Below are positions 16,842-58,400 of a stretch of 64,000 nucleotides of DNA, in pieces (the first letter of the stretch is position 1; the number at the start of each line of letters is the position of its first letter). Position numbers and translations under genes: made by a program. Origin of the DNA: Clytia hemisphaerica (lineage: Eukaryota); assembly GCF_902728285.1 (NCBI RefSeq), contig NW_027104280.1, positions 419,995 to 483,994 of the forward strand. The letters are read 5' to 3'. The notes beneath the pieces were generated by a model. The model ran no database searches and was not told where the DNA came from. It was given only the letters and a program-made list of their open reading frames with translations.

Positions 16842-16899
16842 ATGAAGTCGTGTGAAATGAGAATCGTTTTGCTCTTGGTTTTTGTCATCTTCACAGAGG
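16842..16899 (+). CDS. Kazal gene exon 1 (signal peptide)
   Basis: atg at 16842; donor gag g|gtatgt. Confidence 0.65.
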
Positions 16900-19280: not shown

Positions 19281-19460
19281 TTAAGCAGACGTTTGAATAA
19301 CAGATTTCGAATTTTCTTTCTCCTGTAACGTGATGAGGGTATTGGAAGATTCGGCGAGTTCAGCGATAGAAATTCGACCACGCTGTTTGATGAATTTCGC
19401 GACGGCTTTCAGCTCTTCTTCAGAAATGAAAATAAACTTTCCCACGATCGTCCATCACCC
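19281..19460 (-). CDS. DDRGK1: DDRGK1 terminal exon (DDRGK motif, stop). It contains an apparent 1-nt frameshift
   Basis: ttcttgcag|gggtgatggacgatcgtgggaaaG tttattttcatttctgaagaagag...; stop taa is the reverse complement of 19281-19283. Confidence 0.7.
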
Positions 19461-28903: not shown

Positions 28904-29319
28904 ATGGAAGACCTCCTGACGAAGGGGCGTCAAAGTGCAGAAGAAATTTTCCAAGATGTATGCAGTATTCCACTAAAGAAGCAAAGACTTGACTCCATTT
29001 TGAGAACCATACTGCACCCTCTTAAGGTGTTTGACGATGACACAGCTTCCTTTTGTTCTTGGTTAATTTCCTACGAGCAAAAATTTGAAGAATTCATAAA
29101 ACAGCTGAAAACTTTTGATACATCCACTGTCTGTGGACTTGTTTGGAATGCAAATTTCTTTGCTTACAGATGTAGGGACTGTGGGATTTCCCCTTGTATG
29201 TCACTTTGTGCAGATTGTTTTGCTGCAGGAAATCATGAAGGTCATGATTTCAACATGTTCAAAAGTCAAGCCGGAGGAGCTTGTGATTGCGGTGATAGAA
29301 ATGTTATGAAACCTTCAGG
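28904..29319 (+). CDS. UBR3: UBR3-like exon 1 (start codon, UBR box)
   Basis: atg at 28904; donor tcagg|gtattt. Confidence 0.85.
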
Positions 29320-32300
29320 GTATTTTTATTTGTTCTCTTTATTCATTATGCCTTTTCCTTTTCAAATTCTTTGCTCTAGAAAGAGGGAAGTTTTATGTCC
29401 ATACACATAGAACCATTTTGGGTAACTTTTATTGAGAAAATTCTAGTGCTGTCATGTCATAGCAACTTGTTGTTCTTATTATCTTCACTTCAGACGTCCA
29501 GATTAGCCAAATATTAAATTTACAAAACTGAAAAAGCTTAGGATTCAATATTATGCTTTGAAAACTTCAAAGGGCCGGCGATTTACACAAAAACTTCGGC
29601 GCTGCGCATAGGCTTCGCAATCCCTATTCATAAATTTAAAAATATAGTTATAAATATCCCAATATTGTAATTTTTAACTCTTACAGCATCTTCATTAATT
29701 CTTTATACCAAAAAAATTAAACAATTTATAATTAAAACACACCTGCAACTAAAAGTGAACGAAACACTCGTGAAAATTTTGAATTATACAGCTTTAATTT
29801 AACATCTTTTTTAACCATCTCAATAACTTAACTTTTTAGAAAGCCTGGTGTTATAATTGTCATCCAGTAATTTCAATAAACATAACCTCTTTGCATATGT
29901 CATATTCCTTGTGATGTTTTTGTAACAATTCAGTACATGAAATGTTTGCTCACAGACTTCCGTATTCATCTTACGCACATCCTTAAATTTAGGAAGATCG
30001 GGATGGTATTTACAGTCGTCACTACTGAGCACGCATTTCGACTGCGTGTGTTTCTCAGCATGAAAAACGTCCACAATAAACATTAATTCTTCAATTTCCT
30101 TGGCAAAAACATTCCCTTCCCTTGCTAATCTACAGACGTACGGGTGTAGATCACAGGATCTATCATAAACTATACCTTTCAAGTTTCCATTAAGATTTCC
30201 TTGAAATATATCAATTAACCCTGTAAACACCATTGATAGACTTTCAGCAGTATACATTTCAAAATGGGACAATCGAATGCCGCATGATCTAAAAACATAC
30301 AACATACCAGCAGTCCGTGTCTCGTACTTGTTGCAATTCTCTTCTTTCTTGCAACCTTCTCCACTTGTAATAACATTCTCCAATAGCTTTACTCTTTGTC
30401 TAGTCATAGGATAAAGGTCTAATCTTTCATTTTTGATTTCATTTTTCATCTCTCCTGACTCGTTAGAGTGGATGTGGCATAATTTGGATCCTTTTAAAGA
30501 TTGATTTCCTCTAACCGGATTATTTATACAACGAACAACTTTGTTAACTTCTCCTATCTCATGAGGCAACTTAGTTATCGGTTTAGCGCAACAATATCGA
30601 TACAATTTTTCGTTTCCGTCGATTACAACCATCTTATTCTTGCAACCTATAATTTAGAAAAGTCATTATTTTGATTAATTTTGAAAAACCCCACTGGGAA
30701 ACAATTTAACCGGGATGCTGAGACAGGGGTGTAATAGTCATTTTTTCAATTTAAGCCTACACATATAATGATAAAATGAATCAAGTTCAAAATGTATCCG
30801 AATTACCTGTCTCGTTACATTCGTGTGAAAACCATTTTTGATCGATTACTTTTTTCAAGGTTGGATACACATCTTCACATATCTTTTCAATATCGAAATG
30901 TTTATTGTGGTCCTTTCTGTGCCATAACATTGTGGGGCAAATGCTTATTAGTCGTTTTATGAGCCAATGATTTTCGATGACTTCGGCAATCAGCTTTCTT
31001 TGTAGAGTCATCAATTCCAAATTCAACATTGTACATTTCGGAAATCTTATCAAAACTTGTAGCACCAATACAAATCTGTAGAGAAATCCTCTCTAGATAT
31101 CGTGTCGTAAAAGCTATGGATGACGTGATCATAAAGTAGTCATCTCCATCTGTTAGATACGTTCGATATCCATCTTTATTTTCTGTCCAGTGTCTGTAAA
31201 ACTTCGTCTTACACGTCTTACACAAACCATGGTAATTCAATCCATCAATAATGCCATTTTCAGTGTAAATCCTTACTTGGGATGCTCTAGGGTTAATCCT
31301 GATCTTCTTCGAGCAACAAGTAGTGGTAATTGGGATAAATGCTGGCTGCTCCATGTATTCGCTGTTCCCTGTTTTATACCTAACCATACAGGTGCTGCAG
31401 TGTAGGATATGACTTTCGATTGGACGAAAATAAACTTCACCATTTGGTAGGTCAAGGTCTACTAATACCTGTAGATTACTGTCACTTAATGTGGTTACAT
31501 ACGATTGCAAAGTCTTCGTTATGTATTCGATTCGGTGTGGAGTGCGTAATGAAACATTACTAAGTAAATTCTGTAACACTTTCAATACATCAATCCGAAT
31601 AATCATCTTCGCGCCTCTTAACTTTTCTCCGTATCTGCTTCCAGAAGGTTTGTACTCAAACAAATTTTTCTTTTGTACATAATTTGTTTCATAAAAAACT
31701 GACGTTACAATAAATTTTTCAAGAAGACAATGCAATGGCTTTTTTTAGTTGTGACGTCGGATTTTGATTTTGGGAGAACATTGCATTGCCATCTTTAAAA
31801 ATTAGAAACTTAACGGTCATAAATTCATTTCACCTCAATCAACACTCGAGGAACAATCATGTCGAAACCTTTGAAAGAAATCTCAGACGATGTTTACCGG
31901 CGCGCACTGGAAAAATGTTGGGCGGTAAAGTTGGACACACAGAAAACCTTCCCTACACTAATCGATGAATGGATAACAGTGGAGAAGAAAAAACTTGGAG
32001 TTCCGTATTCTTACCTTGCATACCCACTTCTAACGAGTATATCATACTGTCTCGGTGTGAGCAGAGTAAAACTGGCTGAATCGTACCAAGAACCCGTCAT
32101 CCTTTACTCGTTGGTATCAGGCAGAAGTGGTACAAATAAATCAAGCTGTGTATCACTTTTCCGAAATATCATCAACAAGATTGAAACAAATGAGCGAGAT
32201 GATAAACAGCACATCTTTGACAGTGGCACTATCGAGGGTCTCATGACCACACTTCATGAGAACAACGGCTCCGTTTTATGCGCTGTAGACGAGTTTTCCA

Positions 32301-41300: not shown

Positions 41301-44300
41301 TCTTTTCATACTTACCTCTAAAAAGTCATAAAGGTAGAATCAATGGATATTTATCAGCCAAAAAAGTAAGAAACCCCAAATTTGTTGACTGATCCTTGAT
41401 CTTTTCTCAAACCTTTATATTACTCCATTATTTTATACTCCTGTTAGCTATTAACTGGATAACATCAATATGGTCTTGTTAGAAAATTACCAAAAGTGTC
41501 TAATCTCTCAAACTTTTTTTAATCAGATAATCTTAATCTAGAAAAGCCTTTTCATCAGTAAGTTAATTTTCAATTCCATTGAAACTTCTTAGGAACAATT
41601 TACCAGACTGTTTTGTCGACAATATTCAGCCGTAGGGAAATCTCTGACCACATCAACAAACCCTGATCTACTTTCCAACCATATGGTGCATGTCAGTGTT
41701 CAGCTCTTCAGCAATGAACAACTCGCTTTCAAAATGGTCAAAGAAGAGAACTTGTTGTTCAAAATCATTTTCGTGCTCAGCAAAATGGTTGGAGAGTGTT
41801 TGGACAACTATTCATTGGAAGTTAATGGTATATTATTTTTGTACACTCATGTTCTGTTTGGCTTTTTACTTTTTATACTACCTTTTAAGTGGATTAATTT
41901 TCGCATAGATAAAATTTCTCCTCTTTTTCGCCAAATTTCTTTCATTTTCCCAAGGATTTTGGCCAAATTTGGATTTTGAATTTCTCGCGTGGTTTTGAAA
42001 TAAAATAAAATTGTTCTCTACTAATGTCTTCAAGTGAACAAAGATTAATCTTCTACCACAGGTAATGAGACAAGCATAATGGCAGTGAATTGTGACAACA
42101 AAATTCTTAGCGGGCATTGTTATTGGCCCATTGCAAGTGATTTGACAAATCTTCTGTCCCATCAAAGTGTTGCAAAAGTCTTCTTAGAAACTGGGGATTG
42201 TTTGAACTGGTGGATGCGCTTCGTCAGCCTTTTAACAGGTTTGTTTGAGAAATTTTTTGATGTGACTAGACTAACCAGAAATCCAAAAATCCTCTTTATT
42301 ATTTGTTTCAAAATGATGACAACTTACAAGTAAACCTGTACTGTCATTTAAAAACCGATGAAACCTTTTTATTAGCGATAGTTACGTTGCGTTATATTTT
42401 ATTTTTTGCGTCGTATACACACATACAACATATTTTTACACTTAACTTGGTGTTTTATACTGTGACACATTATGACACTAACTTTTTGTCACAGGGATGA
42501 ATATCAACCACATGCAGTTGCTTACTCATGTAGAACTGGAATCCAAAACTTATTATGCTGCGTTTTCAATTGAATTCGAGTCAGTGGCTGCTGTCATGTG
42601 GGAAGTGTATCGCTCTGTTCAGAAGATGGTAAAACTTTTCTTATATAGAAGAAGCCTTAAATGACCGAATGAGAGGTGTAGAAGGGAACAATAGTGAATT
42701 TTATATAAAGCTTCTCATTTCTATCAAGTATCTTTCTTCTTGGAACTTTTTGAGAGCTTCATTCACCTTTTAAAGGCTTTTGAAAGGTACGAAAAATAAT
42801 AATATTTTTAAAGAAGGTACACCTTATGAAAAAGACGAATTTTAAGCAGAGCAAATGCATTTTACAAATGGACAAACTATGAATGGATACTCTAACTCTA
42901 CGTTCTACGTTCTTGTTTTTTTCTTCTAGAATGAAAGAGTTCATGTTTCAAAAATGTTAGAGGTCTCTGCTGCCACGTTGATCAGTTGGTATTCCTTTGT
43001 TCCTCAAAGTGTAAGTTCTCTTTGTTGTTATAACTTGTACTGCAATCACTACCATCACTGTCACTGTATAATATAAGAGGGTTTTGATTTCGCCATGGTA
43101 GAGTGATACCACGACGCCATTATACTATGTTGTTGTTGTAAGCTAGAGCCCAATCTTTTTAAAGTGGTAAGAATTTTATTTTATCTCTAGTGATAAATCG
43201 GTACGGTACTCAACCTAGCCCTAGTAATGTTGTTTCTGTTTAAGATATCCGATGTTTACAAAGAGCTTTAGATAAGAACTTTTAAACCTAAGAAGGTTTG
43301 CTTTTTAATACTGATGATTACCTGATAAATTTATGACTTTCATATTTCAGTTGAAGAAGCCATCGTTCACCTTCCATTTATCTTTGCATCGATATTTTGC
43401 TTTGTTTGCCAGCTTGGTAAGTGCAAAATGGAATAAATAAATTCTTATCTTATCTTATCTCTTTTAGTTCTATCCCATTTTTAAAAAGGAAACATTACAA
43501 ATTTGATTAATGATTTTTCAAAATTATTGATTTCTTCTTATTTGCAGGCTATCAACCAATTCGATGAGGAAGTGACCAAAATTTTACCACAAAGCATTGC
43601 CAAGTCTGGATTGAACTATTTAGTTTCCACTCTGGTAAGTCCCAAGCATGATAAACCACATCTAAATCATGATACCAAGTAATAGGTTTATTCCTTTTGT
43701 GGACGTTAGAAAGAAACCTCTCTTATCAGCTCTTATTCAGATTCTAAGGAGGCAATTTTGATCTCTTTCAGGCAGCTCTTCAGGAGATTCGTTCGGGCTT
43801 TTGGCTTTACAATGGACACCAGATCAAATGTCAAGCGCAATCCTACATGCAGTCCTATTTTTGTAACTCGATGTTGGACCTAGATGTTTTCTTTGTTCAA
43901 GTAAATCCTGTTACAGTTTGATCTAAATGTTATTTCTACCTTACTTTTTCTAATCATGAAAGTGTCGTTGCACAAAGTCATGTCAATTAGTACCCAACTT
44001 TCTTGAGGTATTTTAAGTTTGTCATTGTATTCAAGTACTTTACATTGAGCAGATTTCCCGTTGCCTTTCATTGGATATTAGCGAGTTTATGTATTTGCAC
44101 TTTGGAGGACGATATAGTGACTGAAGCGATTTGGAATACCCTGCAGTTCAGCACTTTCACCGTCCTCCTCAGCTGGTCAGGATTTAGTCAAAGTAAAACC
44201 TTACCGTCTCCGTCCAAGAAAAATACACATACATAAACTCGGTATTGTCGTTTCTCCAATGGAATTCTATGTAGTTCACTCCGTTATTTTCACCATAGTC

Positions 44301-47300
44301 ATTATAAAAACACTGGTATGGCAATGTATTGTTTTAGCTTTTTGTTTAATTTCCTTTTGTTAAAAACAAAGACAAGTTGCGATTTGCATACTTTTTGATC
44401 ACGTTACCAAAATCTTCTCTTGGGATTGGTCTATTTTCTAATCACATGATCGAAAAGTTTGCAAAATAAATCGATTTCGGTACGAAAGCTCCATCGTTTA
44501 ACAATACCAGACCAGTGTTTTTGCCCCGCAGGGGCTTTTGTTGCTTCACGTAGCGGACCTGCTCGCCAGAAAAATATTCATATTCATGTTTCGTCCGATT
44601 CTGAGCGGGCCGCGCGCGGTTAAAAAATGTTCGCGCGCGATATCTCTTTTGCTGCTACTTGTATTGATTTCCTAGCTATGCACGGACAGAGAAGGTAGCT
44701 TCCCGTCTGCACTGCCAGTCCACACAGCTAAAAGCTTGGTTTCACAAACAACAAACAGCACACAAGATTTTATTTTTGCTTGGTTAATATCTTTTTAACG
44801 TAGTTGCTCAACTGGATTTACTTGAGGGACATTGTTTGCTACTGAATGAATAACTATCAAACTACTGATATTAGATCAAACCTTATACAATTGTCAGAAT
44901 GGACGATGGACATCTTCAATGACAGTTTGTTACACACACACACAGACAGAGTGTTATGCGCTGCTCTAACGAAACCCTGCTGATATTATAAAGGCATAGA
45001 CAAAAGGGAAATTGACCGTTAATTCATATTGTTTACCTATATAGTGATTTCATTTTGAAGGAAATTAAATTGAAATTTTTGGTGGAAAGACAAAAAAACC
45101 CAGAGTACCCTATAATTATATGGATATTGCATGCGCCGAAAGTAATTTTTCAAAGAGTAAGCCTTGCGCCAAAACGTGCCAAAAAACTGGTACCAACATC
45201 GAGTTTCTTACAAAAGGTTTAGTGAGTGAGACATGCCAATGAAAATATACTATGACTAACATGAACTGATTCATTCTCGTGGACATTTGAAGCACAGTGT
45301 TACAGCAAAAAAAATGGTTGTGCATGGGAAGCAGCGAGCAGAAAAATGTAAACAGAAGCGGAAAAAAAGCCGAAAACGATGGATTATGAAGTATTTGATG
45401 CTATTTTGTGAATAATTCTTTACGCCAATATTGAAGCTTAAAAAGCAAACTTTGAAAATGCTGTTTATGTCACTGTGTCAGAACGGTACTTCGATATGTA
45501 ATGTACGCCGAAGATTTTCAGCCTCATATTATGAACAGACTCGAACACTCTCTCTACTAATACCCCCACGGCACATTGTACCGCATTGATGTTGAACGCA
45601 GGAGTATACTTTGCTCAAATCAAATCTGAACAAACTTTTTGACTTTTTAAAACCAGACGTCCAATAAAATACAAACACAATGTTGTACCTACCTGTGAAG
45701 TGAAAAGTTTTTAACCATGTTGACGGTGGTTACAACAGGACACGGTATCTGAAAATTCCCCTGGCAATTTTGAGAGCAACTATCAAATTCATATCTTTAG
45801 TAACCATGAAGAAATTTTATTCTTACTGAAAACTTTTTGCAGAAACACGTATAAAGATTGTTAAAGTTTTTCAGATAATTTTCAGTAACTTTTGATACAA
45901 ATAAATTATATCTACAGTATGCCACCAGTCCAAAGTTACTTACTTTTTAAATTTCAAATCAAATGACTGAAATTATATTCAATTTCATTTTCAAATTCAC
46001 CTTTTAATCTGCATTATGTATATTCTTTATGAAAGGGAAGCACTTTCAGTTTCACAGTACACATTCTTATGTTTGGGTTTTCAAAAGGGATTTTTATTAG
46101 ATTTTTATCTTGTGATTGAAGAAAATCAACTTTGATATCATTCTAGTTCTTAATATGTTGCGAAACCTGTAATGGTTTTAATTTAAGTCACTTTGCATCA
46201 GAAAGGGTAGATTAAACATGTTTTTTTTTGGATTGACACTTTCGTTATGTATGGATCTTACTGAGAAAATTTTAACCGCATCGGCTCGTGCTTCTTAACT
46301 TTAAACAGCTCTAGTAACATTGAGCACTTTTTATGAAGACTCATTTCACCAATTTATAGTCTGATTATGATTCCCTTGCTCTCTTCATGACTAAGTTCCT
46401 CTGGGCTATAATATCTGCTATCGGCGGGGCATTCATAGCGACAGCTACTTGCTAGTTATATTGATTTTGAGATTTTCACCATCTCACTTTCTTAGATGGG
46501 GATGGTGGTTTTACCACCAAGTTATATCATGGATCTGCTGATTGATCGGTGAGCTGAATATTTTGATCTTTATCCAAAATTTCACACTACTACATGTAAT
46601 AGTGAAGATTACTGACATAATGTATGTTAATTGAATTAGAAGACAACAGCATAATGGAATGTTTATATTAGATTCGAACTAATCTAATTTGTTCGAATTA
46701 TAGAAAGATTCGAATAATACAAGTTCGAATTAGAGAGAGTCTACTGTATCTCTAGATCATTAAGTATGTATGTTTTGAATTAGAAGAGTAAGATGGAATG
46801 TTTATTTCAACTGAAAAGTTGAAGTGTTTTGTTTTCTTCTCTTATATTTGAAGTCTAGAAATATACAGTTGATTCTCTCTAGTTCGAACCCGAAGGGGTA
46901 ATGTGATTTGTTCGAGTTATATAGACAGATTCGAATAGTAGAATTTCGGAGTAGCGAAAGTAGATTGTACTTCTAAATATATTCAATAAGTCAAACACTT
47001 TTTTGTAGGTTTTGTATCAGAGATTGGTTCCAGTTTGGTGAATGTGAAGAAGATGATGAGAAATCATTGTTGTTGGTGGACGCTTTCTTGAACACCATCT
47101 TATTATTGCTGACTCATCACATTTATACAGGTACCTTGATTCTTCTTCTTGAAAGAAAAGGCTGATTACACGCACCTTCTCACAGACCCACTGGGAACCC
47201 TTCACACTGGAAAAATTGTCCAAAATATTGTCCCCCGGTGGATAATTATTCTCCAATTTTTGTCCTCACTGAAAATAATCAAGTAAACCAATCTTTACTG

Positions 47301-47943
47301 CAAAGTATGATGCTTTTCTTTCCATCCCCACTGAGTTTTCTGACTTGAAAACAAAAGAATTGAAATCCCCAGCCAAAAAAATATGGGAATATCAATCCCC
47401 ATCGAGTTTCAGTCAGTTATTTTTATCCCCACTTGCTGAAAAAATCCTACTGGGTCTGTGAGAAGGGGGTGTTGATTGTTCTTCTTGAAAGAAAAGACTT
47501 TCGTTTGTAGATGTAGATCCGTCACTGGTACTTCTTAGTAAATACATGTTTGTTATGTCTCGTCTCGTCTCATTTGTATTGTAATTCACAAGGCTCTAAA
47601 TTTGGTCCAACCGAGTCTACTGAACAACCCTAAAGCCTCATGAATAATAAGTTTCTTTGATATTTGTAACAAAATCTACAATACACCTGCATTACCTGAA
47701 TATTGCACCAGCATGAAGCACCGTGTAGCAATTATAAGTTAGTTCTTTATTTCTTGATATGTTGCTCGTATGAAATCCATCAGCTTGACAATTTCCAAGC
47801 AAATTTGAATTATCAATTTGACAAAATGATTATCATAATTGTTTTTAACTTTATTAGGAATTTCTGAAGAGGAGGTAATGCGAAAAGACATCATCGCTAA
47901 TTTATCTGTTTCTGACAAAACGCACAGCCAGTTGCTGGATTAT
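28904..47943 (+). CDS. UBR3: UBR3-like E3 ubiquitin ligase (N-recognin family) gene, 5' and central part. Exons identified: 28904-29319, 37434-37579, 37870-38300, 41704-41826, 42062-42238, 42495-42628, 42930-43010, 43351-43416, 43548-43634, 43772-43900, 47009-47130, 47858-47943. More exons certainly exist
   Basis: Exon 1 encodes the complete UBR box: [63 protein letters not shown], which matches human UBR3 CGLVW.AN..[38 protein letters not shown]. Exon 2 continues as FCHHHG... Later exons fit UBR-family conserved blocks (EIRSGFWLYNGHQIKCQAQSY; MRKDIIANLSVSDKTHSQLLDY matching UBR1 KREIIHQLSIKPMAHSELVKSL). Confidence 0.8.
29820..31735 (-). CDS. Unclassified Cys/His-rich protein of about 560 aa (2 exons: 31735-30807 and 30646-29820; one frameshift near 30905-31068). 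Candidate transposase-like or virus-derived gene, divergently paired with the 31859-33479 gene. Homology could not be assigned from the sequence alone
   Basis: ORFs 30902-31735 and 29820-30632 are joined by a GT-AG intron (cgagacag|gtaattcgg ... ttatag|gttgcaag) that yields ...SHECNETG/CKNKMVVIDGNEKLYRYCCAKP... Cys/His clusters include HILHCSTCMVRYK, TTCCSKK, HGLCKTCKTKFYRHW, YRYCCAKP, VRCINNPVRG, CHIHSNESG, YDRSCDLHPYVC, VDVFHAEKH and CKYHPDLPKF. It sits inside UBR3 intron 1 on the opposite strand. Confidence 0.5.
31859..33479 (+). CDS. Unclassified NTPase-like protein of about 440 aa (exons 31859-32352 and about 32582-33479) with a deviant Walker-A-like 'GRSGTNKSS' and an acidic hhhhDE Walker-B-like 'LCAVDEFSTF'. 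Possible SF3 (D5/P4-type) helicase-like ATPase, not confirmed
   Basis: ORF 31859-32356 ends at ag|gtaact; the downstream ORF frame 32582-33479 is open from the acceptor ctttag|a and joins in phase. It is head-to-head with the 29820-31735 gene, sharing a 123-bp intergenic region (31736-31858). It lacks the AT-rich codon bias of the neighbouring host exons. Confidence 0.45.
33940..35100. repeat. Satellite array with an 86-bp unit (ccatttcagacttataaaagctcccatcacacgcgaaaggcttgcgcagcgcaacgttcttcgccgctacgccgaagtcgcgaagg), about 13 copies. The first copy is interrupted by a 33996-34325 inverted-repeat-flanked insert
   Basis: ORF-track entries every 86 bp (34397, 34483, 34569, 34655...) with near-identical translations; it is relatively GC-rich compared with its surroundings. 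Confidence 0.9.
35290..35840. mobile_element. MITE with about 100-bp TIRs (aactgttatgggggatgtta...cccatttgtcaaaagttgcctttgggtataaaaagaagaaaaa.tcatg)
   Basis: 35311-35405 equals the reverse complement of 35752-35835; an internal (aataat)n microsatellite lies at 35490-35520. Confidence 0.75.
37434..37579 (+). CDS. UBR3: UBR3-like exon 2 (GFCHHHGKVEGSKQKAIPEKLIWVAQILIPRLIICLYEKTKNKDEAMEE-)
   Basis: acacag|gtt...gaag|gtattg; continues the UBR box through the split codon. Confidence 0.75.
37870..38300 (+). CDS. UBR3: UBR3-like exon 3 (DSSLDVEPIIDFLNKISEVEALREIFCEKILSS...LPNQKYK)
   Basis: tcttttag|act...tacaag|gtttgt; in phase with exon 2. Confidence 0.65.
38509..41100. repeat. Cluster of 9 copies of a 15-bp motif 'tgtcccgtacgtaac' (palindromic core cgtacg / acgt) in both orientations, embedded in otherwise non-repetitive sequence. 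Possible nested MITE termini or a binding-site cluster
   Basis: + orientation copies at 38513, 38873, 41062 and 41082; - orientation copies (gttacgtacgggaca) at 40103, 40497, 40512, 40678 and 40870. Confidence 0.55.
38760..39982 (-). pseudogene. Degenerate coding remnant on the - strand (charged or coiled-coil N-terminus KRGRIEKIREKQKKQRLKNDEAKEEYCKKERASKRLQQARKR; ...LDKVESRLKAKEDARSF...; ...KTLWHKFEAENYDKEISYAQFWRYVSENII...), probably an old TE-encoded protein
   Basis: Several collinear - strand ORFs (39773-39982, 39162-39380, 38942-39289, 38760-39068) separated by frameshifts and stops; they lie between + and - copies of the 15-bp motif. Confidence 0.3.
41704..41826 (+). CDS. UBR3: UBR3-like candidate exon (LFSNEQLAFKMVKEENLLFKIIFVLSKMVGECLDNYSLEVN-)
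   Basis: Consistent in phase with its neighbours, but similarity was not verified. Confidence 0.45.
42062..42238 (+). CDS. UBR3: UBR3-like exon (GNETSIMAVNCDNKILSGHCYWPIASDLTNLLSHQSVAKVFLETGDCLNWWMRFVSLLT-)
   Basis: ccacag|gta...aacag|gtttgt. Confidence 0.55.
42495..42628 (+). CDS. UBR3: UBR3-like exon (GMNINHMQLLTHVELESKTYYAAFSIEFESVAAVMWEVYRSVQKM)
   Basis: tcacag|gga...agatg|gtaaaa. Confidence 0.55.
42930..43010 (+). CDS. UBR3: UBR3-like exon (NERVHVSKMLEVSAATLISWYSFVPQS)
   Basis: ttctag|aat...caaagt|gtaagt. Confidence 0.55.
43351..43416 (+). CDS. UBR3: UBR3-like exon (LKKPSFTFHLSLHRYFALFASL)
   Basis: tttcag|ttg...gcttg|gtaagt. Confidence 0.6.
43548..43634 (+). CDS. UBR3: UBR3-like exon (AINQFDEEVTKILPQSIAKSGLNYLVSTL)
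   Basis: tttgcag|gct...ctctg|gtaagt. Confidence 0.6.
43772..43900 (+). CDS. UBR3: UBR3-like exon (AALQEIRSGFWLYNGHQIKCQAQSYMQSYFCNSMLDLDVFFVQ)
   Basis: tttcag|gca...gttcaa|gtaaat; matches the UBR-family R.G.W.RNG...Q..YY block. Confidence 0.65.
44085..44175. repeat. Short hairpin-forming interspersed repeat (ttgaggacg...gtgactgaagcgatttgga...accgtcctc). Related copies lie at 49195-49275 and 57795-57885
   Basis: The 'gaggacg..a.agtgactg.agcgatttgga' block is present three times in the window. Confidence 0.6.
44555..44660. promoter_or_regulatory. Isolated CpG-rich island (cgggccgcgcgcggttaaaaaatgttcgcgcgcgat) inside a UBR3 intron; function unknown
   Basis: Local CpG clustering in a window of about 33% GC; no ORF; no tRNA or snRNA-like fold recognised. 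Confidence 0.2.
46600..46980. repeat. 'ttcgaa'-rich interspersed repeat with an internal duplication of about 160 bp. A related copy lies at 54750-55120
   Basis: Shared 'attcgaa..agag', 'gttcgaattat', 'ttagaagag', 'ggaatgtttat' blocks. Confidence 0.5.
47009..47130 (+). CDS. UBR3: UBR3-like exon (-FCIRDWFQFGECEEDDEKSLLLVDAFLNTILLLLTHHIYT-)
   Basis: tttgtag|gtt...tacag|gtacct. Confidence 0.55.
47160..47470. mobile_element. MITE (about 310 bp) with TIR 'cttctcacagacccactggg', flanked by an about 25-bp direct duplication (ttgattsttcttcttgaaagaaaag.ct) and inserted 30 bp downstream of a UBR3 exon
   Basis: 47165-47186 equals the reverse complement of 47443-47464; direct repeats at 47137-47160 and 47472-47497. 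Confidence 0.7.
47858..47943 (+). CDS. UBR3: UBR3-like exon (GISEEEVMRKDIIANLSVSDKTHSQLLDY)
   Basis: attag|gaa...gattat|gtatcc; matches UBR1 DEIKREIIHQLSIKPMAHSELVKSL. Confidence 0.6.
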
Positions 47944-48049
47944 GTATCCTTTTCATTGGTATTACCAAACTTAAGGTTGGATGTAGTATTCTCAACTTCA
48001 GTTGAGCTACAATCTGACAATGTCTGTGTGTGTGTCTGTCTGTCTGTCA

Positions 48050-48900
48050 CAAAAACTTTAGGGCAGCCTGGAGACTTCAAAAATGCTTGGATTTGGCTGA
48101 AATTTGGCACACTTGTTCCTTGGGTGAGTATCTGGGGGTGTTTTTTTTATTTTTTGAAAATTTTGATTTTTGGGGCCTGGAGACGAGTTTTTCGCCAAAA
48201 CGAGGCTAAAACTTTAGGGCAGCCTGGAGACTTCAAAAATGCTTGGATTTGGCTGAAATTTGGCACACTTGTTCCTTGGGTGAATATCTGGGGGTGTTTT
48301 TTTCATTTTTTGAAAATTTTGATTTTTGGGGCCTGGAGACGTGTTTTTCGCCAAAACGAGGCTAAAACTTTAGGGCAGCCTGTAGACTTCAAAAATGCTT
48401 GGATTTGGCTGAAATTTGGCACACTTGTTCCTTGGGTGAATACCTGGGGGTATTTTTTTCATTTTTTGAAAATTTTGATTTTTGGGGCCTGGAGACGAGT
48501 TTTCGCCAAAACGAGGCTAAAACTTTGTGACAGTCTGGAGACTTCAAAAATTGTTCTATTTGGCTGAAATTTGGCACACTTGTTCCTTGGGTGAATATCT
48601 GGGGTTTTTTTTTTCATTTTTCAAAAAATTAGATTTTTGGGGCCTGGGGACGAGTTTTTCGCCAAAACGAGGCTAAAATTTTGGGGCAGCCTGGAGACTT
48701 CAAAAATTGTTCGATCTGGCTTAAATTTTGCACACTTGTTCCTTGGGTGAATATATGGGGGTGCTTTTTGCATTTTTCAAAAATTTAGATTTTTGGGGCC
48801 TGGGGACGAGTTTTTTTGCCAAAACGAGGCTAAAGCTTTGAAGCAGCCTACAGCCCTCCAAAATGGTCGGATTTGGTTGAAATTTGGCACACTTGTTCAT
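48050..48900. repeat. Tandem repeat with an about 156-bp unit (aaaactttagggcagcctggagacttcaaaaatgcttggatttggctgaaatttggcacacttgttccttgggtgaatatctggggg...gcctggagacgagtttttcgccaaaacgaggct), about 5.5 copies; a degenerate copy extends to about 49020
   Basis: The repeated ORF translations KTLGQPGDFKNAWIWLKFGTLVPWV in the track are spurious. Confidence 0.9.
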
Positions 48901-50425
48901 TGGGTAAATACCTGGGGGTCTACAATTGGGCCTATGAATAATTTGAAGCCACTGAAGTTGAGCCCAGTGCGTTGCGCACGTTCGACTATTAGTAATAAAC
49001 CTTTTCGACCGTAATCGCCAATTGCCGCGCGGGCATTTTTCGCACCCATAGACTGAGACAATAGAAAGAGGTGTCAAAAAAGGATTGGATCGAGTTTAGG
49101 GGGATAATTGAATAATTTCTTTCAAAATGTCACCACTTCGAGTAGGCGTCTAAAACAGATAATACAAAAGCGAATTTATATGTTTGAACTTTTGAGGACA
49201 GTGGAGTGACTGGAGCGATTTGGAAAACCTACAATTCTGACCCGCAAAATTGAGGACGGTAAAAGTTATGTATTTGTTACCGCCGTGCTTAGCTGATCAG
49301 GACCTAGATCAATCAGACACTCACGGTCTTCGTTGCAGAAAAACACAAATATAAAAACTCGCTAATTATACCCAGGAAAGGGGTTACTTTCTCGCCTCCG
49401 CAAATCCCAAGTAGGCTCGCAAAAGCACAAAATTCAAAATAACTCTCGATAGTAGAAAGCTTTTAGAAAATCTAGAGACTTTACTCTCAGGACCTGAATG
49501 AGAGCGGTTTTTACAACACTGTAATTATTGTCTTTGTTTTATCAAAAGATGATGAATATGTCATAAACGTAGACGCTCCCTCATAAATTTTGCAGGGTAT
49601 CTCGCTACGCCTATGCAGGTGCATAATAAACGTGCCCACACGCTTATTAATTTTCGAAAGTTTTTCAACCCCCACGGACCTTATTAGGAATTCCCACGTT
49701 TATTAAAATTCAGAAATTTCTTATCAAGTATTTTTCAAAATGGAGAGTAAGTATTTTCTGCAGGCTTTCAATGACGTTGAGCTAGACAGCTGACAAATTA
49801 AACAAGTTAAGCAATTTTAACAAATATAATTATACTTATAGGTGTGATAAAGTATGACTTATTGTTGTGGTACCCTCAAAATATGTGCATCTTCTTGCTT
49901 CCAATAATTAGGGGTATTTTCGACAAATTATCAAATTTCCAACCCCCACGCTTATTAAGACCCCCACGTTTATTAAAATTCTGAAAAAATTCCAACCCCC
50001 ACGTTTATTTGTACTCCCACGTTTATTATACCTGAGAGTACTCGCCGTCAAAAAAAAAAGAAATTTCACATAGGTTCTATTTACCGAACCTTAGTGGTAC
50101 ACCCCAGCACTCCCAAGAAGTAAACTGTGCCCATTTTTAATTGATTTTCTTTTTTCTATAATATTTCAATTTCATATCATTTTGTTTTCATTTTCCGAAA
50201 AAGGTGGATTCTATTTTATACAATGATATAACCCATTTCTGATATTATCATTTTTATTGCTTTTGGGCGAAATTTTGAAAGCCTAAATACGATTCTCTGC
50301 ACGTACTAGCTTTTGATTTTTGAATGTTCAAGTGTTCAATGACAATTGTTTAAAATCACGAGTTTGTGTTATTTACTGTAGAATATTCGATTAAATCTTT
50401 GGGCATACGTCATTATCATTCTGCA

Positions 50426-52747
50426 ATGTGGGTGCTAATCACAATCGTTATCAATCTTATGTCAATTCATGGCAAGGTTTATGACATCATCGGTGTTGGG
50501 TCCTCTTGTTACCATGACAACTTCACCGAAACAAAAACCTTTAGTTTGAAGTCAAGGTTTCACGACCACATGAGTGAGTTATTGATCCGAAAAATGGGCT
50601 TTCTGACAAATGGTGTTTTTAAGTATCAATATTTTGATGTTTGTTATGATATAAATAAACTGCTGTATCTGGCAAACGACTTGCTGCTAAATCCAGCCTT
50701 CATTCGGACAGATGAAAGACCCGAAAACATCACAGATCGCCGGACAACAAAATCCACAGTTCTATTCGTTTTTGCGTATCTCAATGCGACGTTTTTTTAT
50801 CTGATATCAGACATATTGTCACAGACAGAAATCTTCATAATGAAACTTGGTAAGACAGTTGACGTACCTTACAACCCGAACGCCATACATCATATTTCAA
50901 TGATTACTGAAGCAAAGTTTGAAAAATATTTAGAAGTTCTTGTCAAGAAGTTTAATTGGAAATATGTAACTTTAGTGTCGTTGAAACACACTAAACTTCT
51001 ACGAGAATCTCTACAACAATTTTACTTCGAACGGTACCAGGAAATACTTCAAAAGCTCTCCGTGTGCTTGAATGTAGAAACAGTCATGAACCGGCAAGAC
51101 CTCCAGCAAGTGATCAAGAGAATCCAAGAAAGTCCTGAAGTGAAAACAATTATGATGTTTGCTGATCCTTCAGAGATGGTCCAGGAAATTTTTAAACCTT
51201 TCAAATTGACTAATAAGACTTTGATCATCGATGAAGGTTATATCGTCAAAGAGCCAGATTGGCCGAACATGATATCTTACAGGAGAAGTTTATCCAAGAA
51301 GCATGCCGTATTTCCCGCTCTGGTTCGATTGACAATTAAAATAAGGGATACCATGTTCGCCAGTCACACTATAAACCAACTCCCCAAATATTTACAGCAT
51401 ATTTACACGAGCAATTATTTTTCCCAGCTTAGCGGAGATGCAATCTTAATGTTTATATGGTTCAACCATTGTGAACAAAATTCTAAATATTTTATGGGTT
51501 GTATGTTGGAGCTCTTTAAACAAACAGAATATTACGTCAATATTCAAGATGGAGATCAATCTTATGATATTGACACCACAGAATGGAAATCCACATTTGG
51601 CCAATCATTATACAAACTCTCAAAGATTCCAAATGATCTTATAGAAAATCTGGCCTCTGGGAAATGTACTCCAGTCCATTGCCAACCTGGTATGGAATAC
51701 ATCTACACCAAGTTGGACAACCACACTACTCAATGGAACGAATCGTATGGTTGGACTTGTCAACCCTGTGCAATCAATTTCTATAAAAATGAAAGAGGTA
51801 ATTTCTCTTGTCAACAATGTCCTGGTTTTTATGTAGCCAACGCAAACAAGGACTCGTGCTATGATCCTTACGTTAACAGGACGGTTTCTACGGAGATGTC
51901 GATCGCCGTCTTCTGTATTTCCTTAACTGTTGTTGGTATGTTTTCTTGTGTCATTGTCCTAATCGCGTTTGTGAAGTACCGGGTTACACCAACGATGAAA
52001 GCAGCGGGGTTCAACTTAACGATTGTACATCTATGTATCATTGCTGGTAATTTTATATTGTTGATCTCTGTTTATTACGGTGCGCCAACCCAATTTAAAT
52101 GTTATTGCCGTTTAATGGTGCTCTCTGTATCTTACAATCTCATCGTTTCAGTGGTTTTACTCAGAGCACAGCGAGTGTTAACTGTTTTCCAGTCCAACAT
52201 CAAAATGACGAGATCGGAAATACGAAAGTCAAAAGCAGTCGAGTTTTTCTCCATATTGGTGGTTGTGATTATTAACAATTTTATCCTTGCCATAATGGTG
52301 TTGAAAAATCCTATCAGGATTCAAACGGTTAGGAACGAAAAGACTTTGACGAGATCTTCCCATTGCGATAGTACTGCAAAGATGCATGTTTTAATCGGAT
52401 TCGCTCTTTTAATGCATATCACATGTTTCATCCAAGCTTTTCGAGGACGCCGTCTACCAGGTGCGTTTAAAGAAACCATGCCCATTGTATATGGAAACTT
52501 CATGGCCATTGCTAGTTTTCTTGTTCTCTACCCTACGGTAACTTTCCAGAAAGACCCTTTAAAACGAGAACTTTTCTATTTTTTTGCCATTGCTTTGAAC
52601 ATGAATATTATGCTGGCTTTTTGTTATTTTCATAGAGTTTATGTGGCTTTGTTTAGACCGGAAATCAACACCGTAGAGTTCGCAAGGGCTGTAGTGATGC
52701 AAAAAATGACTAAAGACTCACGAAACAAACTCCCACAAGCTTCTTAG
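50426..52747 (+). CDS. Intronless class C (metabotropic glutamate/GABA-B/taste-like) GPCR, 773 aa: divergent N-terminal ligand-binding region, cysteine-rich domain and 7TM
   Basis: A single 2.3-kb ORF whose first in-frame ATG is at 50426 (MWVLITIVINLMSIHG, a signal-like segment). CRD: CQPGMEYIYTKLDNHTTQWNESYGWTCQPCAINFYKNERGNFSCQQCPGFYVANANKDSCYDP. Seven hydrophobic helices follow, with TM6 'FKETMPIVYGNFMAIASF' (compare class C FNEAKxIxFxM) and TM7 'PLKRELFYFFAIALNMN' (compare PKxYII). Confidence 0.75.
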   Translation: MWVLITIVINLMSIHGKVYDIIGVGSSCYHDNFTETKTFSLKSRFHDHMSELLIRKMGFLTNGVFKYQYFDVCYDINKLLYLANDLLLNPAFIRTDERPENITDRRTTKSTVLFVFAYLNATFFYLISDILSQTEIFIMKLGKTVDVPYNPNAIHHISMITEAKFEKYLEVLVKKFNWKYVTLVSLKHTKLLRESLQQFYFERYQEILQKLSVCLNVETVMNRQDLQQVIKRIQESPEVKTIMMFADPSEMVQEIFKPFKLTNKTLIIDEGYIVKEPDWPNMISYRRSLSKKHAVFPALVRLTIKIRDTMFASHTINQLPKYLQHIYTSNYFSQLSGDAILMFIWFNHCEQNSKYFMGCMLELFKQTEYYVNIQDGDQSYDIDTTEWKSTFGQSLYKLSKIPNDLIENLASGKCTPVHCQPGMEYIYTKLDNHTTQWNESYGWTCQPCAINFYKNERGNFSCQQCPGFYVANANKDSCYDPYVNRTVSTEMSIAVFCISLTVVGMFSCVIVLIAFVKYRVTPTMKAAGFNLTIVHLCIIAGNFILLISVYYGAPTQFKCYCRLMVLSVSYNLIVSVVLLRAQRVLTVFQSNIKMTRSEIRKSKAVEFFSILVVVIINNFILAIMVLKNPIRIQTVRNEKTLTRSSHCDSTAKMHVLIGFALLMHITCFIQAFRGRRLPGAFKETMPIVYGNFMAIASFLVLYPTVTFQKDPLKRELFYFFAIALNMNIMLAFCYFHRVYVALFRPEINTVEFARAVVMQKMTKDSRNKLPQAS

Positions 52748-53528
52748 ATACTGTAATAAAACTTCTGTTGAATGTAGAGTTTTCAAAAAGATCGTAAGTT
52801 TATTTCACTGCTAGACTAGCAACGCTTTTAGTCTAAAATAAACTCACTGCCTTTGTAATAAGCTTTACAATCTGTTAGTAAACATTGTGGCAAGAATTCC
52901 CTTCCACCCTAGTATCAATGTTGATGGGTGAGAAGACTGCCACCAGACCCAGAAAAATAAGCTGACATCAACACTGATATTATAGGGGGGAAAGAGATTT
53001 TTCTAGAAATTACCACATATTTTGTCACTGATTGTAAACCGTAGGGAAAATCGTGAACGGGGTTTCCTGTTAAGCGAGCTTACAGCCGATAAAGTCGGCG
53101 ATTTTAGACTATACGTATCCTCGAAACTCTACCGTGGACATTTTTCATCCGATCAATGTTATTATCGGCTGTGAACTTTGCGCATATTTTTTTCTAAGTT
53201 TTTTTATCCCTGTAAGGGACAATAACATCGTCTACACATAATCTCAATAAAGTCATACATAAAGCAGTTGGAAAGATAAATAAGAGTGAGTTTTATTTTG
53301 AAAAAGATAAAGGAATGAAAAAAATGTAATTGAAGATTGATGGTCTTCTAATGATCGGTATTTTTCTTCTTTTTACTGTGTGGTCTTTTCTTACGTCAAT
53401 TTCTTGACGAAGGGTTATTTTTAAAAGGGTAACATTATAATCCAGAAACTAGCAACGAATGATCTATATTATCGACCACGTAGATAAGATTTTACCGGAA
53501 TATGCCTCCTTAACTTCGATGGAAAAAC

Positions 53529-53667
53529 TAACAGGTTCCGACTCGCCCAGGAGATACACAATCAATCAACAAACATTTCGATAATGTTTTGAAATCTGTT
53601 TCGAATTACAAATCGCCGGCTGTCGAATCCTTTGCAATGCAACAAGGAATGTACACTCTGAAAGGTA
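53529..53667 (+). CDS. Candidate exon (VPTRPGDTQSINKHFDNVLKSVSNYKSPAVESFAMQQGMYTLK-); gene assignment uncertain
   Basis: aacag|gtt...gaaag|gtaagt; open frame; phase not reconciled with neighbouring exons. Confidence 0.25.
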
Positions 53668-53997: not shown

Positions 53998-54680
53998 AAA
54001 ACAACTTCTAATTTCATGAAATTTTTTATTTCCGTCAAGATTGCATTTGGGAGGAAAACAACTTCTAATTTCATGAAAATTTCATTTCCGTCAAGATTGC
54101 ATATGGGAGGAAAACAACTTCTAATTTCATGAAAATTTTTTATTTCCGTCAAGATTGCATTCTGGAGGAAAACAACTTCTAATTTCATGAAAATATTTAT
54201 TTCCGTCAAGATTGCATATGGGAGGAAAACAACTTCTAATTTCATGAAATTTTTTATTTCCGTCAAGATTGCATTTGGGAGGAAAACAACTTCTAATTTC
54301 ATGAAAATTTCATTTCCGTCAAGATTGCATTTGGAAGGAAAACAACTTCTAATTTCATGAAAATTTCATTTCCGTCAAGATTGCATTTGGGAGGAAAAAA
54401 ACTTCTAATTTCATGAAATTTTTATTTCCGTCAAGATTGCATTTGGGAGGAAATAACTTCTAATTTCATGAAAATTTCATTTCCGTCAAGATTGCATATG
54501 GAAGGAAAACAACTTCTAATTTCATGAAAATTTCATTTCCGTCAAGATTGCATTTGGGAGGAAAAAAACTTCTAATTTCATGAAATTTTTATTTCCGTCA
54601 AGATTGCATTTGGGAGGAAAACAACTTCTAATTTCATGAAAATTTTTTATCTATCAAGATTGCATATGGGAGGAGGAATT
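53998..54680. repeat. Tandem repeat with an about 60-bp unit (acaacttctaatttcatgaaattttttatttccgtcaagattgcatttgggaggaaa), about 11 copies
   Basis: Direct copies; the - strand ORF 53994-54302 is a repeat artefact. Confidence 0.9.
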
Positions 54681-55137
54681 TGACTTGAATCACCTCAAAC
54701 AACGGATTTATAAAAAGTCGGATCAACAGAAAGCCTTGGATAATTACAATAACCAGTAAGAATGTCACGGTCGCTTGGTGGACTCGAACTAATTCAAACT
54801 TCTGTTACTCCAATCTTTCCATAAATAAACTAATATCTTGGCTCTCCTCAAAGGCCAACTCCCGTAAAATATTCTCTATAATTCGAATCTTAGAATTAGA
54901 CTCCCCGTTAGAGTTCGAATAATTGAGTGCTAACTGTAGAACGTACGGCTGGTAACAATTGTTAATTATTATTGATACGTTGAATTCTCTTTTAAATCTT
55001 TCTGTAATTCGAAGTAAAACTAGTCCCCCCTCAGATGGAAAGTTTTCCTATCTTTTATTTCAATCTCTCTCTAACTCGAATAAAATTCACTAACGTGATC
55101 GAATTATAGAGATTTACATACATTTTTTTCAGTATCC

Positions 55138-55214
55138 AGCAAAAAGGCTTATCCACAACTGGCAATGCTTGGCCACCGTTACGCAAACCAAGTGATGTTC
55201 ATCCTTCAATGAAG
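55138..55214 (+). CDS. Candidate exon (IQQKGLSTTGNAWPPLRKPSDVHPSMKKMF-); uncertain
   Basis: ttttttcag|tat...gttcag|gtcaga; phase conflicts with neighbours. Confidence 0.2.
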
Positions 55215-55689
55215 AAAATGTTCAGGTCAGATATTCCTTCCTACCTCCAAAACCAAAATTTGTGAAATTGAAAAATATGCATTACGTATCTGGAATAAAA
55301 ACTGACGCAATCTGTATTGATTAATCAACGCTAGTTACACCTTCTAAAATCTGGGAGAATATGCGAAGCTCCGCAGGATATTCGTAGAGTCCATTAGCGA
55401 GGGTGGCGAAAAATTAGACAGATATTTCAAGCTTGAGTGACACGATAATTCGATTAAATTGTCCGAGTGAGTATATATTGTGTGTGAAATCATATTCTTC
55501 CCCGTCATTTTACATTTTGTAGAGTTCTCGAAGATAAACAACTGCATCAAATATTGATTTTCATCATCTATAAGGTAAAAAATAAATGATGGCCCACTCT
55601 TTGACAGCGGGGTTGTTTACCTCAAATCATTATTTGAAAGCTATTAAACTCTCTTATATCGAATTTTTTTTCCTTCAGCTTAACTTTCG

Positions 55690-56275: not shown

Positions 56276-56478
56276 TTCGGACATGTGTCTGTACAGGTGG
56301 ATCTCTGACTTTGTTTGTTTGTTTGTTTCAATCCGAAAAGAAGGATAAGTTTACATACAAGAGTAACGATGAAACACTATAGACATATAATTTCATTTTG
56401 TCGAGGTCAGAGGTCGTAACTGTTCCTATCGTGTCTGTCTTTCGAAACTCTAAATAACTTCTCGGAAACTTTTTTCAG

Positions 56479-58400
56479 GCAGTAACAGAGGAACAAATGA
56501 TTCCAGAAAGCACGATGATTTCAACACTCCACCTTCTACAACTCGTGCTCAGCCATCAAAAATCGAATGAGGTAACTTCGACGCTAAATAACACAATTTC
56601 AGCAAACAAGTACACGCTTTTTTATTAGAATATACTTTATAAGAATAATAATGATGAAATTGGCCAAAAAATGAAGAATATGCTAAGAATAACACCATCA
56701 TGGAATTTGGCAACTGAACCTAAGAATGCCATTGTTAGAACATTTTCATTTATAAATTTCCAAGTAAGGCACGCTGCTTTCACAAAAATGCCATTTTATG
56801 CTTTAAACGTATTATTAAATGTTAAATCTAGTCTAGTCTAACCTTAGAATGCTGTAAGAATATTTTAGGATGATTTTCCCCAAAAAGTTAAGAATATCCA
56901 TCATGAAAAAACACCATTCTTATAAAAAAGCGTGTATTTAAAAGAAACTTTCCTGAATCTGGAATCTGAGATGGGTACGACAAACTCAATGTAGTTTTAT
57001 GAAGCGTTGGCATACTTGTAATGAGATTATGTTTTCAACATTTTGTTTTTCAGGCTCCGATGAACGCGGATGCGAAAGATACAAAGAACAAAGTAATGGA
57101 GATAACTATTTCTTATCTCCATCATACCAATCAAAAGGAGACACAAGAAAACATTCTCGCTCAAATACACCAAGAGATAAGTAAAGGTAAAGAGTCTTTA
57201 TCCCCCTGATTCCCCAACCCTCAGCTTGACTCATTTAACAACGCCTGAAAATGTTTTTAGCCATACATTTGTCGTATATTTATTTATTCCACCTTCAACC
57301 TGACGAAGTGCCATTCCAAGAGTCTATGTCCAATTGAACTCATAAACATTGGGTGTTATCCAGTGGTGCATGGGTCGCGGTGCTTCTAGGTCCCTACTGG
57401 TTGTATCAAAAAAGAAAGTGTGATGTACCCCTTTCTCTGGTATCACTGTAATGTAATATCCGGTCGTGACTTAGTATTGTCTTAAATGTCAATCGTCTAC
57501 ATTCATACTTTCCTTCTCAGATAACGAAATGGATCGAAAGTTCCAGCAACATCAGGAGACAATACAACAACACCAAACAGGCGAAGAGGTTTTATTCGAG
57601 GAGGACGGCATCACATTCTTCATGGCGGATTATTTCTTCAACATACTATTCAAACCATTGTGCTTACACATGGACACGTTGCTCGAACATGGAGTTTATT
57701 GTAAGTTGAATATGAGATCCCGACATCTCGTCTGGCACACCATTCAACCTCCCCGTCCTTGTTGTTGTTCATCAAATGACAACAATGAGTTTATGTATTT
57801 GCATTTTTGAGGACGGAGAAGTGACTGAAGCGATTTGAAAAAGTTTTAGACCCTCAAAATGAGGGACAGTAAAAATGCGATTTAGTGAAGAATTCTCTTC
57901 CACTGTAGTTCTTATCTTATGTACTTTCCAAACTATTTTTCGCCGCGATATGATGTCATGGCATGACGTCAAAAAAGGGTAAAAACAGATAACTATGGTC
58001 TAACTTACTAAAGAATTAATTGTATGTAATCACTAAATAAAAACTTTAAGTGAGGTGAACCATAGTGTTGAAAAACGAAGAATATCAAAATTATTTTATT
58101 TGATACGTCTTTTCTCTAGCGGTGGGTGGAACCTGTAAGCACTTCAAGAACTTACTTCAACAATTACCAGACGAACACAAAACCTTCCTCAAATACCTTT
58201 TGATGTATTGGAATCACCTTCTCAAACAAAGAGATGTCAAACCACAACATCTACCATTCGTTAAAAGAAGAACTGAATCAAAATCATTCGCAACTGTTCT
58301 CGAACTGTTGTTGGAAAACTTCGAAAGAGTCTTTCAGGTAGTTATCACACCAAAGATCAACTTTTCTTTTATTTTGATTTTTTCAGGTGACTAAAGTGAA
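56479..58400 (+). CDS. 3' terminal exons of a + strand gene (56479-56571, 57054-57186, 57521-57700, 58120-58337, 58377-58400 with stop). Possibly the C-terminus of the UBR3-like gene; product not assigned
   Basis: Phase-consistent GT-AG chain: AVTEEQMIPESTMISTLHLLQLVLSHQKSNE / APMNADAKDTKNKVMEITISYLHHTNQKETQENILAQIHQEISK / DNEMDRKFQQHQETIQQHQTGEEVLFEEDGITFFMADYFFNILFKPLCLHMDTLLEHGVY / SVGGTCKHFKNLLQQLPDEHKTFLKYLLMYWNHLLKQRDVKPQHLPFVKRRTESKSFATVLELLLENFERVFQ / VTKVNRM*. Confidence 0.5.

Follow-up and report, generated by a model that had tools for sequence, protein, structure and literature searches.

A single uninterrupted open reading frame (ORF) of 773 codons lies on the forward strand of a 64,000-nucleotide stretch of the Clytia hemisphaerica genome (NCBI RefSeq assembly GCF_902728285.1, contig NW_027104280.1, positions 419,995 to 483,994), here called the window, in which all unqualified coordinates are counted. 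The frame runs from an ATG at 50426 to a TAG at 52745-52747 within an intron of a UBR3 gene on the same strand, and its sequence indicates a genuine, probably functional gene for an orphan class C G-protein-coupled receptor (GPCR) of predicted function. The receptor gene and the signals around it are laid out as follows.

50369..50381, + strand: splice-acceptor-like site (ttatttactgtag/A), a polypyrimidine-AG sequence 45 nt before the ATG
50426..52747, + strand: coding sequence of a class C GPCR, single exon, 773 codons plus TAG (ORF, 7tm_3, PDB matches)
50426..50473, + strand: predicted signal peptide, residues 1-16 (MWVLITIVINLMSIHG), an N-terminal hydrophobic segment with a putative cleavage site
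50474..51661, + strand: compact Venus-flytrap-like domain, residues 17-412 (ANF_receptor, family profile, AlphaFold)
51662..51871, + strand: cysteine-rich domain, residues 413-482, seven-cysteine variant (Ephrin_rec_like, cysteine counts, predicted local distance difference test (pLDDT))
51872..52660, + strand: seven-transmembrane domain, residues 483-745 (7tm_3, CaSR and mGlu7 alignments, hydropathy, pLDDT)
52755..52760, + strand: putative polyadenylation signal AATAAA, with 7 nt between the stop codon and the signal

The initial annotation, made from the letters of the window, had singled out an intronless 773-codon ORF, and the frame is indeed open throughout from 50426 to 52747; read from stop to stop, it extends a further 20 codons 5' of the ATG, to a GTG at 50366. 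In a window of 35% G+C, with a per-codon stop probability of 0.069, the chance of 773 open codons is 9e-25, which rises to about 1e-19 when every start position on both strands is counted. By open-frame length the receptor ORF ranks second in the window, and the only longer frame is a reverse-transcriptase ORF of the long interspersed nuclear element (LINE) type.

The proposed class C identity is borne out by the Pfam profile 7tm_3 (PF00003; cut-off 33.5 bits), which matches residues 490-734 at 98.6 bits (6e-28) over profile positions 4-248 of 251, and by solved structures in the PDB, among which CaSR, mGlu7 and mGlu4 are the best relatives of the single sequence (about 2e-24; the match begins at the cysteine-rich domain and ends with transmembrane helix 7, TM7). 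Hydropathy shows a signal-like N-terminal segment followed by the seven hydrophobic segments that had been anticipated, at residues 486-736. The extracellular profiles named for checking alongside 7tm_3 gave a divided result: ANF_receptor (residues 172-263) reaches 25.4 bits, just equal to its cut-off of 25.4, and NCD3G stays below its threshold. The cysteine-rich stretch is instead matched by Ephrin_rec_like, at 26.6 bits (cut-off 23.1). The predicted extracellular part carries eight N-glycosylation sequons, and the consensus of the receptor's family starts with a methionine and a hydrophobic stretch, as does the predicted signal peptide.

The extracellular region had been considered too divergent to be called a Venus flytrap by eye, and as a single sequence it comes no further than the ANF_receptor cut-off; the flytrap becomes apparent once a profile of the family and a modelled structure are consulted. 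Built from 67 members, this profile matches CaSR at 5e-88 overall, with profile positions 1-282 aligning to flytrap residues 1-300 of CaSR at about 1e-14, and it aligns to mGlu5, mGlu7 and TAS1R2 in a single piece from the flytrap to TM7. The AlphaFold model built from the 67-sequence alignment (a model from a four-sequence alignment was unusable, at pLDDT 46) has a mean pLDDT of 83, with values of 70-95 over residues 17-265, where strands and helices alternate as expected for a flytrap lobe, above 95 in the cysteine-rich domain and 90-98 in the seven-transmembrane domain. Foldseek places full-length CaSR, TAS1R2 and mGlu chains at the top of its matches (about 1e-25, about 850 aligned columns), with global template-modelling scores that are low, about 0.38, as is expected of multi-domain chains. 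On the evidence of profile and model, the extracellular domain is, for all its divergence, a compact homologue of the Venus flytrap.

This compactness, with roughly 395 residues in the receptor's flytrap-like domain, is a property of the whole family, in which the region before the cysteine-rich domain has a median length of 420 residues and is some 100-130 residues shorter than in canonical receptors. The two halves of the domain differ, residues 17-270 being recognisable and residues 271-412 hypervariable across the family, with mean pairwise identities of 18% and 11%, respectively, compared with 33% in the cysteine-rich domain and 27% in the seven-transmembrane domain. At the positions equivalent to the amino-acid-binding residues of CaSR (given in brackets), the receptor has A121 (S147), G142 (A168), T144 (S170), K190 (Y218) and E270 (E297), in an alignment at only 18% identity in which register errors are possible. 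The acidic position (D/E) is the only one of these that is common in the family (48 of the 67 members), the others varying, so a canonical alpha-amino-acid pocket appears not to be a family feature. In the profile alignment, no receptor cysteine falls opposite the CaSR C129/C131 intermolecular disulfide loop.

The cysteine-rich domain contains seven cysteines (C414, C419, C445, C448, C462, C465 and C478), not the nine that had been counted. Seven is also the number in this stretch in 57 of the 67 family members, and none of the 67 has the canonical CC[FWY]xCxxC motif. Sequence comparison nevertheless indicates that a homologous cysteine-rich stalk is present despite the missed NCD3G threshold. 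In CaSR, the cysteines of the CC pair (C561/C562) bond to flytrap C236 and to the first cysteine of the stalk. The pair is absent from the receptor, and its two former partners are kept, C214 (the equivalent of CaSR C236) in 62 and C414 in 63 of the 67 members, which makes a direct C214-C414 disulfide an attractive idea; such a bond would take the place of the two that were lost with the CC pair.

The membrane core is more conventional in its landmarks. The cysteines that join TM3 to extracellular loop 2 are present (C559, found in 64 of the 67 members, and C647, found in 66), as are the intracellular-loop-3 motif QAFRGRRLPGAFKE, with its conserved glutamate at E683, and the TM7 motif HRVYVALFRPEINT, also given as RVYVALFRPEINT. 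Arginine occupies the lysine positions of TM3 (R580) and TM7 (R737), phenylalanine replaces the TM6 tryptophan (F698) and E683 is unchanged; by alignment, the predicted functional microswitch positions are thus kept or conservatively replaced.

A word-indexed search with the single sequence returned one real relative (P0001, 778 residues, 33% identical), whose ORF runs unbroken on a 4.8-kb scaffold from a DNA metagenome (locus L001). An exhaustive HMMER scan yielded 1,610 hits, including 143 cluster representatives below 1e-30, mostly of 700-850 residues. Thirty representatives were looked up, and one of them, from Varanus (P0267, 1,893 residues), is an ordinary vertebrate V2R-type protein; among the other 29, the only named proteins are hydrozoan, the rest being ORFs on metagenome or Logan contigs. 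The named relatives comprise two 'GPRC6A-like' proteins of C. hemisphaerica itself (XP_066923462.1 and XP_066925376.1, about 40% identical to the receptor), Clytia A0A7M5XEY2, and XP_057296262.1 of Hydractinia symbiolongicarpus, annotated as 'vomeronasal type-2 receptor 116-like'; the nearest relatives are 33-41% identical to the receptor. A related-locus search of JGI metagenome contigs with a five-sequence alignment found no relatives. The Clytia and Hydractinia proteins share the receptor's architecture (about 735-835 residues, compact flytrap, seven-cysteine domain) and the motifs DPY, QAFRxRxLPxxF and LFxPxxNT, but are only 27-41% identical to it. The lineage-restricted family of intronless paralogues suggested by the initial annotation is supported, with 143 clusters below 1e-30 and names from Clytia and Hydractinia only. 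We found no description of this receptor family in the searchable literature on hydrozoan or cnidarian class C or intronless GPCRs, where a paper on the Clytia planula mentions a class C receptor of the GABA-B-like kind only. The miniature flytrap, the seven-cysteine stalk and the single-exon structure are thus undescribed in that literature, yet can be seen in the Clytia and Hydractinia proteomes produced by automatic annotation.

Every genomic member that was checked, namely the gene in the window, that on L001, two on a 366-kb contig (L004) and one in Hydractinia (L005), has a single coding exon. The L004 paralogues, at 10001-12358 (+) and 13481-15925 (-) of their contig, are full-length, intronless genes for proteins of 785 and 814 residues, about 35% identical to the receptor; they lie tail to tail, 1.1 kb apart, with no UBR3 exons nearby. 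The Hydractinia gene, which likewise is not in UBR3, is one coding exon of exactly 2,424 nt on chromosome CM055249.1, with an unbroken translation. Since all members examined are intronless, intronlessness is a trait of the family and no sign of a recent retrocopy.

This bears on the possibility that a processed copy of some family member came to lie in the UBR3 intron and persists there as a silent or decaying retrocopy, with a frame that is still open but neither expressed nor functional. An intronless ORF in the intron of an unrelated gene is what such an event would leave, and LINE-type reverse-transcriptase ORFs in the window (12933-14540 (+), RVT_1 3e-21; 22244-24685 (-), RVT_1 9e-39, which at 813 residues is the longest ORF listed) could provide the machinery. 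However, no poly(A) remnant follows the 3' end and no target-site duplication flanks the gene, and the frame is still intact in 36%-GC DNA, where stops arise readily, even though the nearest relative is about 60% divergent. At the 57 positions where conservation within the family reaches 70% or more, the receptor has the conserved residue in 51 cases, above the family mean of 48.5, which argues against decay. We consider a silent retrocopy unlikely. The initial annotation had offered 'retroposed' as one description of the gene, for which we see neither the poly(A) remnant, nor the target-site duplication, nor an intron-bearing parent gene; it is conceivable that the family itself arose long ago by retroposition.

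The host gene was delineated with UBR3 homologues, which were retrieved with a 730-residue concatenate of candidate exons and then used to map the exons. All of the following are on the + strand.

28904..29323 (28919-29323 in the homologue map): UBR3 exon 1 with the UBR box, start of the host gene (UBR3-named matches; PDB UBR box, 2e-14; tblastn, 2e-44)
37450-38321: UBR3 exon, colinear with homologues
41593-41802: UBR3 exon, colinear with homologues
42079-42243: UBR3 exon, colinear with homologues
42485-42628: UBR3 exon, colinear with homologues
43333-43416: UBR3 exon, colinear with homologues
43766-43903: UBR3 exon, colinear with homologues
47858..47943 (47857-47943 in the homologue map): last UBR3 exon before the receptor (GISEEEVMRKDIIANLSVSDKTHSQLLDY; UBR3 homologue matches)
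47944..53534: host UBR3 intron of 5,591 nt with GT/AG boundaries, which holds the receptor gene and a 156-bp tandem array
53535..53664: first UBR3 exon after the receptor (VPTRPGDTQSINKHFDNVLKSVSNYKSPAVESFAMQQGMYTLK; tblastn to P0302 residues 711-774, 3e-7; blastp, 2e-9)
54655-54756: UBR3 exon, weaker match in the homologue mapping
55134-55226: UBR3 exon, weaker match in the homologue mapping
56476-56550: UBR3 exon, weaker match in the homologue mapping

The exon at 47858-47943 matches residues 682-712 of one homologue (P0302, 5e-7) and 715-745 of another (P0313, 2e-6), corresponding to the start of the UBR1-like winged-helix domain, to which it also has a weak Pfam match (UBR1-like_wing). It is colinear on the UBR3 homologue with the exon at 53535-53664, and the intron between the two opens with the donor TAT/GTATCC at 47943/47944 and closes with the acceptor ctaacag/G at 53534/53535. 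The receptor gene therefore lies within one UBR3 intron, in sense orientation. Same-strand nesting in a UBR3-like gene had been recognised from the start, as had the upstream exon end at 47943; the nearest downstream exon, however, is that at 53535-53664 and not one at 56479. Nor are the exons from there on terminal, as had been supposed, since that at 56476-56550 corresponds to about residues 820-840 of homologues that run well beyond this point, and is thus mid-gene. Pfam and PDB searches with the translations of candidate downstream exons gave nothing usable, and two further segments (57475-57807 and 58104-58391) were dropped as exons because they had no match to UBR3.

The shared orientation, the good acceptor-like site at 50369-50381 and the AATAAA past the ORF might also suggest an alternative 3'-terminal exon of UBR3 itself, in which the exon at 47858-47943 would be spliced to the acceptor at 50381 to give an isoform that ends here. 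That exon ends in phase 0, however, and from 50382 this phase reads 18 codons (NIRLNLWAYVIIILQCGC) and then meets a stop before the receptor frame, which excludes a UBR3-receptor fusion through the 50381 acceptor. At most, a truncated UBR3 isoform would result, with the receptor ORF as untranslated sequence. The receptor frame starts from an ATG and a predicted signal peptide of its own, and the same holds for the paralogues that lie outside UBR3. This makes the alternative exon a very improbable account of the locus.

Repeats and transposons abound in the intron and in the rest of the window (the 156-bp array, a KDZ transposon, LINEs), a setting in which the ORF could be the cargo of a transposable element or a member of a repeat family, the outcome that the initial annotation had named as fatal to the receptor gene. 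Yet the ORF is not flanked by terminal repeats, inverted or direct, tblastn found no second copy or fragment of it in the 64-kb window, and its relatives are paralogues of 33-41% identity rather than near-identical copies. Of the explanations considered here we regard this as the most far-fetched.

The repeats of the window are of several kinds. UBR3 intron 1 contains a KDZ-type DNA transposon (29820-33479) with ORFs for a transposase (29820-30632 (-)), a CxC5 cysteine-cluster protein (30902-31735 (-)) and DUF3987 (31859-32356 and 32640-33479 (+)). Four large tandem arrays in the UBR3 introns occupy 34320-35090 (86 bp x 9, locally G+C-rich), 48052-48919 (156 bp x 5.6, in the host intron of the receptor), 53998-54674 (56 bp x 12, reaching up to the next UBR3 exon) and 60133-61455 (479 bp x 2.8). 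Between 49625 and 50030 there are four copies of a motif of about 43 nt with CCCACG(C/T)TTATTA, and an A10 tract comes after them at about 50050. Located 370 nt 5' of the receptor ATG, this stretch may represent either a regulatory motif in several copies or a short retroposon's tail. An Rfam scan of the window found nothing.

The region around UBR3 is partly conserved elsewhere. A DDRGK-domain gene (19347-20750 (-)) lies 5' of UBR3 on the opposite strand, and an ENA contig (L003) is syntenic with the window here: its UBR3 exons and DDRGK-like gene are 73-85% identical to those of the window at the nucleotide level, the DDRGK gene being at 4559-6468 of that contig with exons at 74-85%. The UBR3 exons that span 15 kb in the window (28919-43903) take up only about 2.8-4.9 kb in two relatives (L002 679-3527 and L003 10055-14997), the introns of the window being much larger and filled with transposons. 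On L003, a 321-residue, intronless, class-A-like GPCR ORF (16648-17613 (-); 7tm_1 at 25.6 bits, below the cut-off) lies antisense just past the equivalent of the exon at 43766-43903, in a locus three-fold more compact; it has no counterpart in window positions 43904-47857. In this lineage, single-exon receptor genes of different kinds may have entered UBR3 introns on more than one occasion.

Signals that could serve independent expression of the receptor gene flank its coding sequence. A putative polyadenylation signal, whose presence was one of the checks proposed at the outset, lies directly past the stop codon, with a second AATAAA at 52837, and the paralogue on L001 has an AATAAA about 65 nt past its stop. 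Upstream, the site at 50369-50381 could be the acceptor for a spliced leader or for an intron in the 5' untranslated region; hydrozoans are known to add spliced leaders to some mRNAs (PMC11067881). The mRNA would most likely derive from a promoter of its own, or from spliced-leader trans-splicing at this acceptor, and would most likely end at the AATAAA just past the stop codon. By homology to solved class C receptors, the signal peptide would direct the protein to the membrane, a ligand would bind to the extracellular flytrap, and the rigid cysteine-rich stalk would relay the resulting change to the seven-transmembrane domain, probably in a dimer, so as to activate a G protein. In this account the ORF, its domains, the family, the nesting and the frame incompatibility with UBR3 are shown, and we infer expression, trans-splicing, dimerisation, G-protein coupling and ligand class.

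Several results weigh against a functional receptor gene. Exact-protein look-ups returned no record for the receptor, nor for Clytia P0124. A close orthologue was not recovered, and at 40-41% identity the best match precludes measuring purifying selection from the ratio of nonsynonymous to synonymous substitution rates (dN/dS). The NCD3G score of 14.3 bits is far under the threshold of 38.9. The AlphaFold model falls below pLDDT 60 at residues 270-400, and the canonical amino-acid-binding residues of the flytrap appear not to be conserved in the family, so that binding of a ligand by the extracellular domain is an assumption. Set against the intact frame, the domain matches and the family conservation described above, these points leave us with a probability of roughly 80% that 50426-52747 is an independently translated, single-exon orphan class C GPCR of the CaSR/GPRC6A/V2R/T1R-like branch, a member of an intronless family located in sense orientation within a UBR3 intron.

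Among known receptors, the closest relatives of solved structure belong to the group of CaSR, GPRC6A, T1R and V2R/OlfC, with which the receptor aligns at full length through flytrap, cysteine-rich and seven-transmembrane domains, and shares the TM3-extracellular-loop-2 disulfide, the intracellular-loop-3 and TM7 motifs, and the equivalents of CaSR C236 and E297. It differs from this group in its shortened extracellular domain, in the loss of the CC pair, in the TM6 substitution of phenylalanine for tryptophan and in the ligand-holding Ser/Thr/Tyr residues, which appear not to be conserved in its family, as well as in being intronless. In vertebrates, the coding sequences of CaSR, T1R and V2R are split over several exons. 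Likeness to mGlu1-8 is also continuous, profile positions 116-746 aligning to mGlu7 from flytrap to TM7 at about 1e-67, but the score is below that for CaSR, and the receptor has no glutamate-binding signature and only seven cysteines in the cysteine-rich domain. Intronless GPCR genes nested in host introns are a general phenomenon in animal genomes, and the present gene resembles them in that a single-exon receptor is contained entirely in the intron of a housekeeping gene to which it is unrelated. Unlike such genes in general, it lies in sense orientation in a lineage that uses spliced-leader trans-splicing, which would offer a possible, unusual route for expressing a nested gene from the host pre-mRNA.

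The family also displays traits of a chemoreceptor expansion, including many divergent paralogues, one adjacent pair (on L004) and extracellular identities of 11-18% compared with 27-33% elsewhere in the protein, and a chemoreceptor role is plausible on these sequence grounds. A bolder proposal, which we put forward tentatively and regard as rather doubtful, is that of an undescribed, hydrozoan-specific family of intronless chemoreceptors with a miniaturised, hypervariable flytrap and a rewired C214-C414 disulfide, whose ligands would be cues from prey or the environment rather than canonical amino acids and whose sense-nested copies would be freed from the host pre-mRNA by spliced-leader trans-splicing.

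Taken alone, the single gene is an ordinary annotation result. Cnidarian chemoreception is poorly understood at the level of receptors, and a large, fast-evolving family of single-exon genes that are easy to clone is a practical set of candidates for deorphanisation. The family bears on how class C receptors can do without roughly one quarter of the flytrap and two stalk cysteines, and sense nesting in a lineage with trans-splicing is a modest example on which ideas about the expression of nested genes can be tested.

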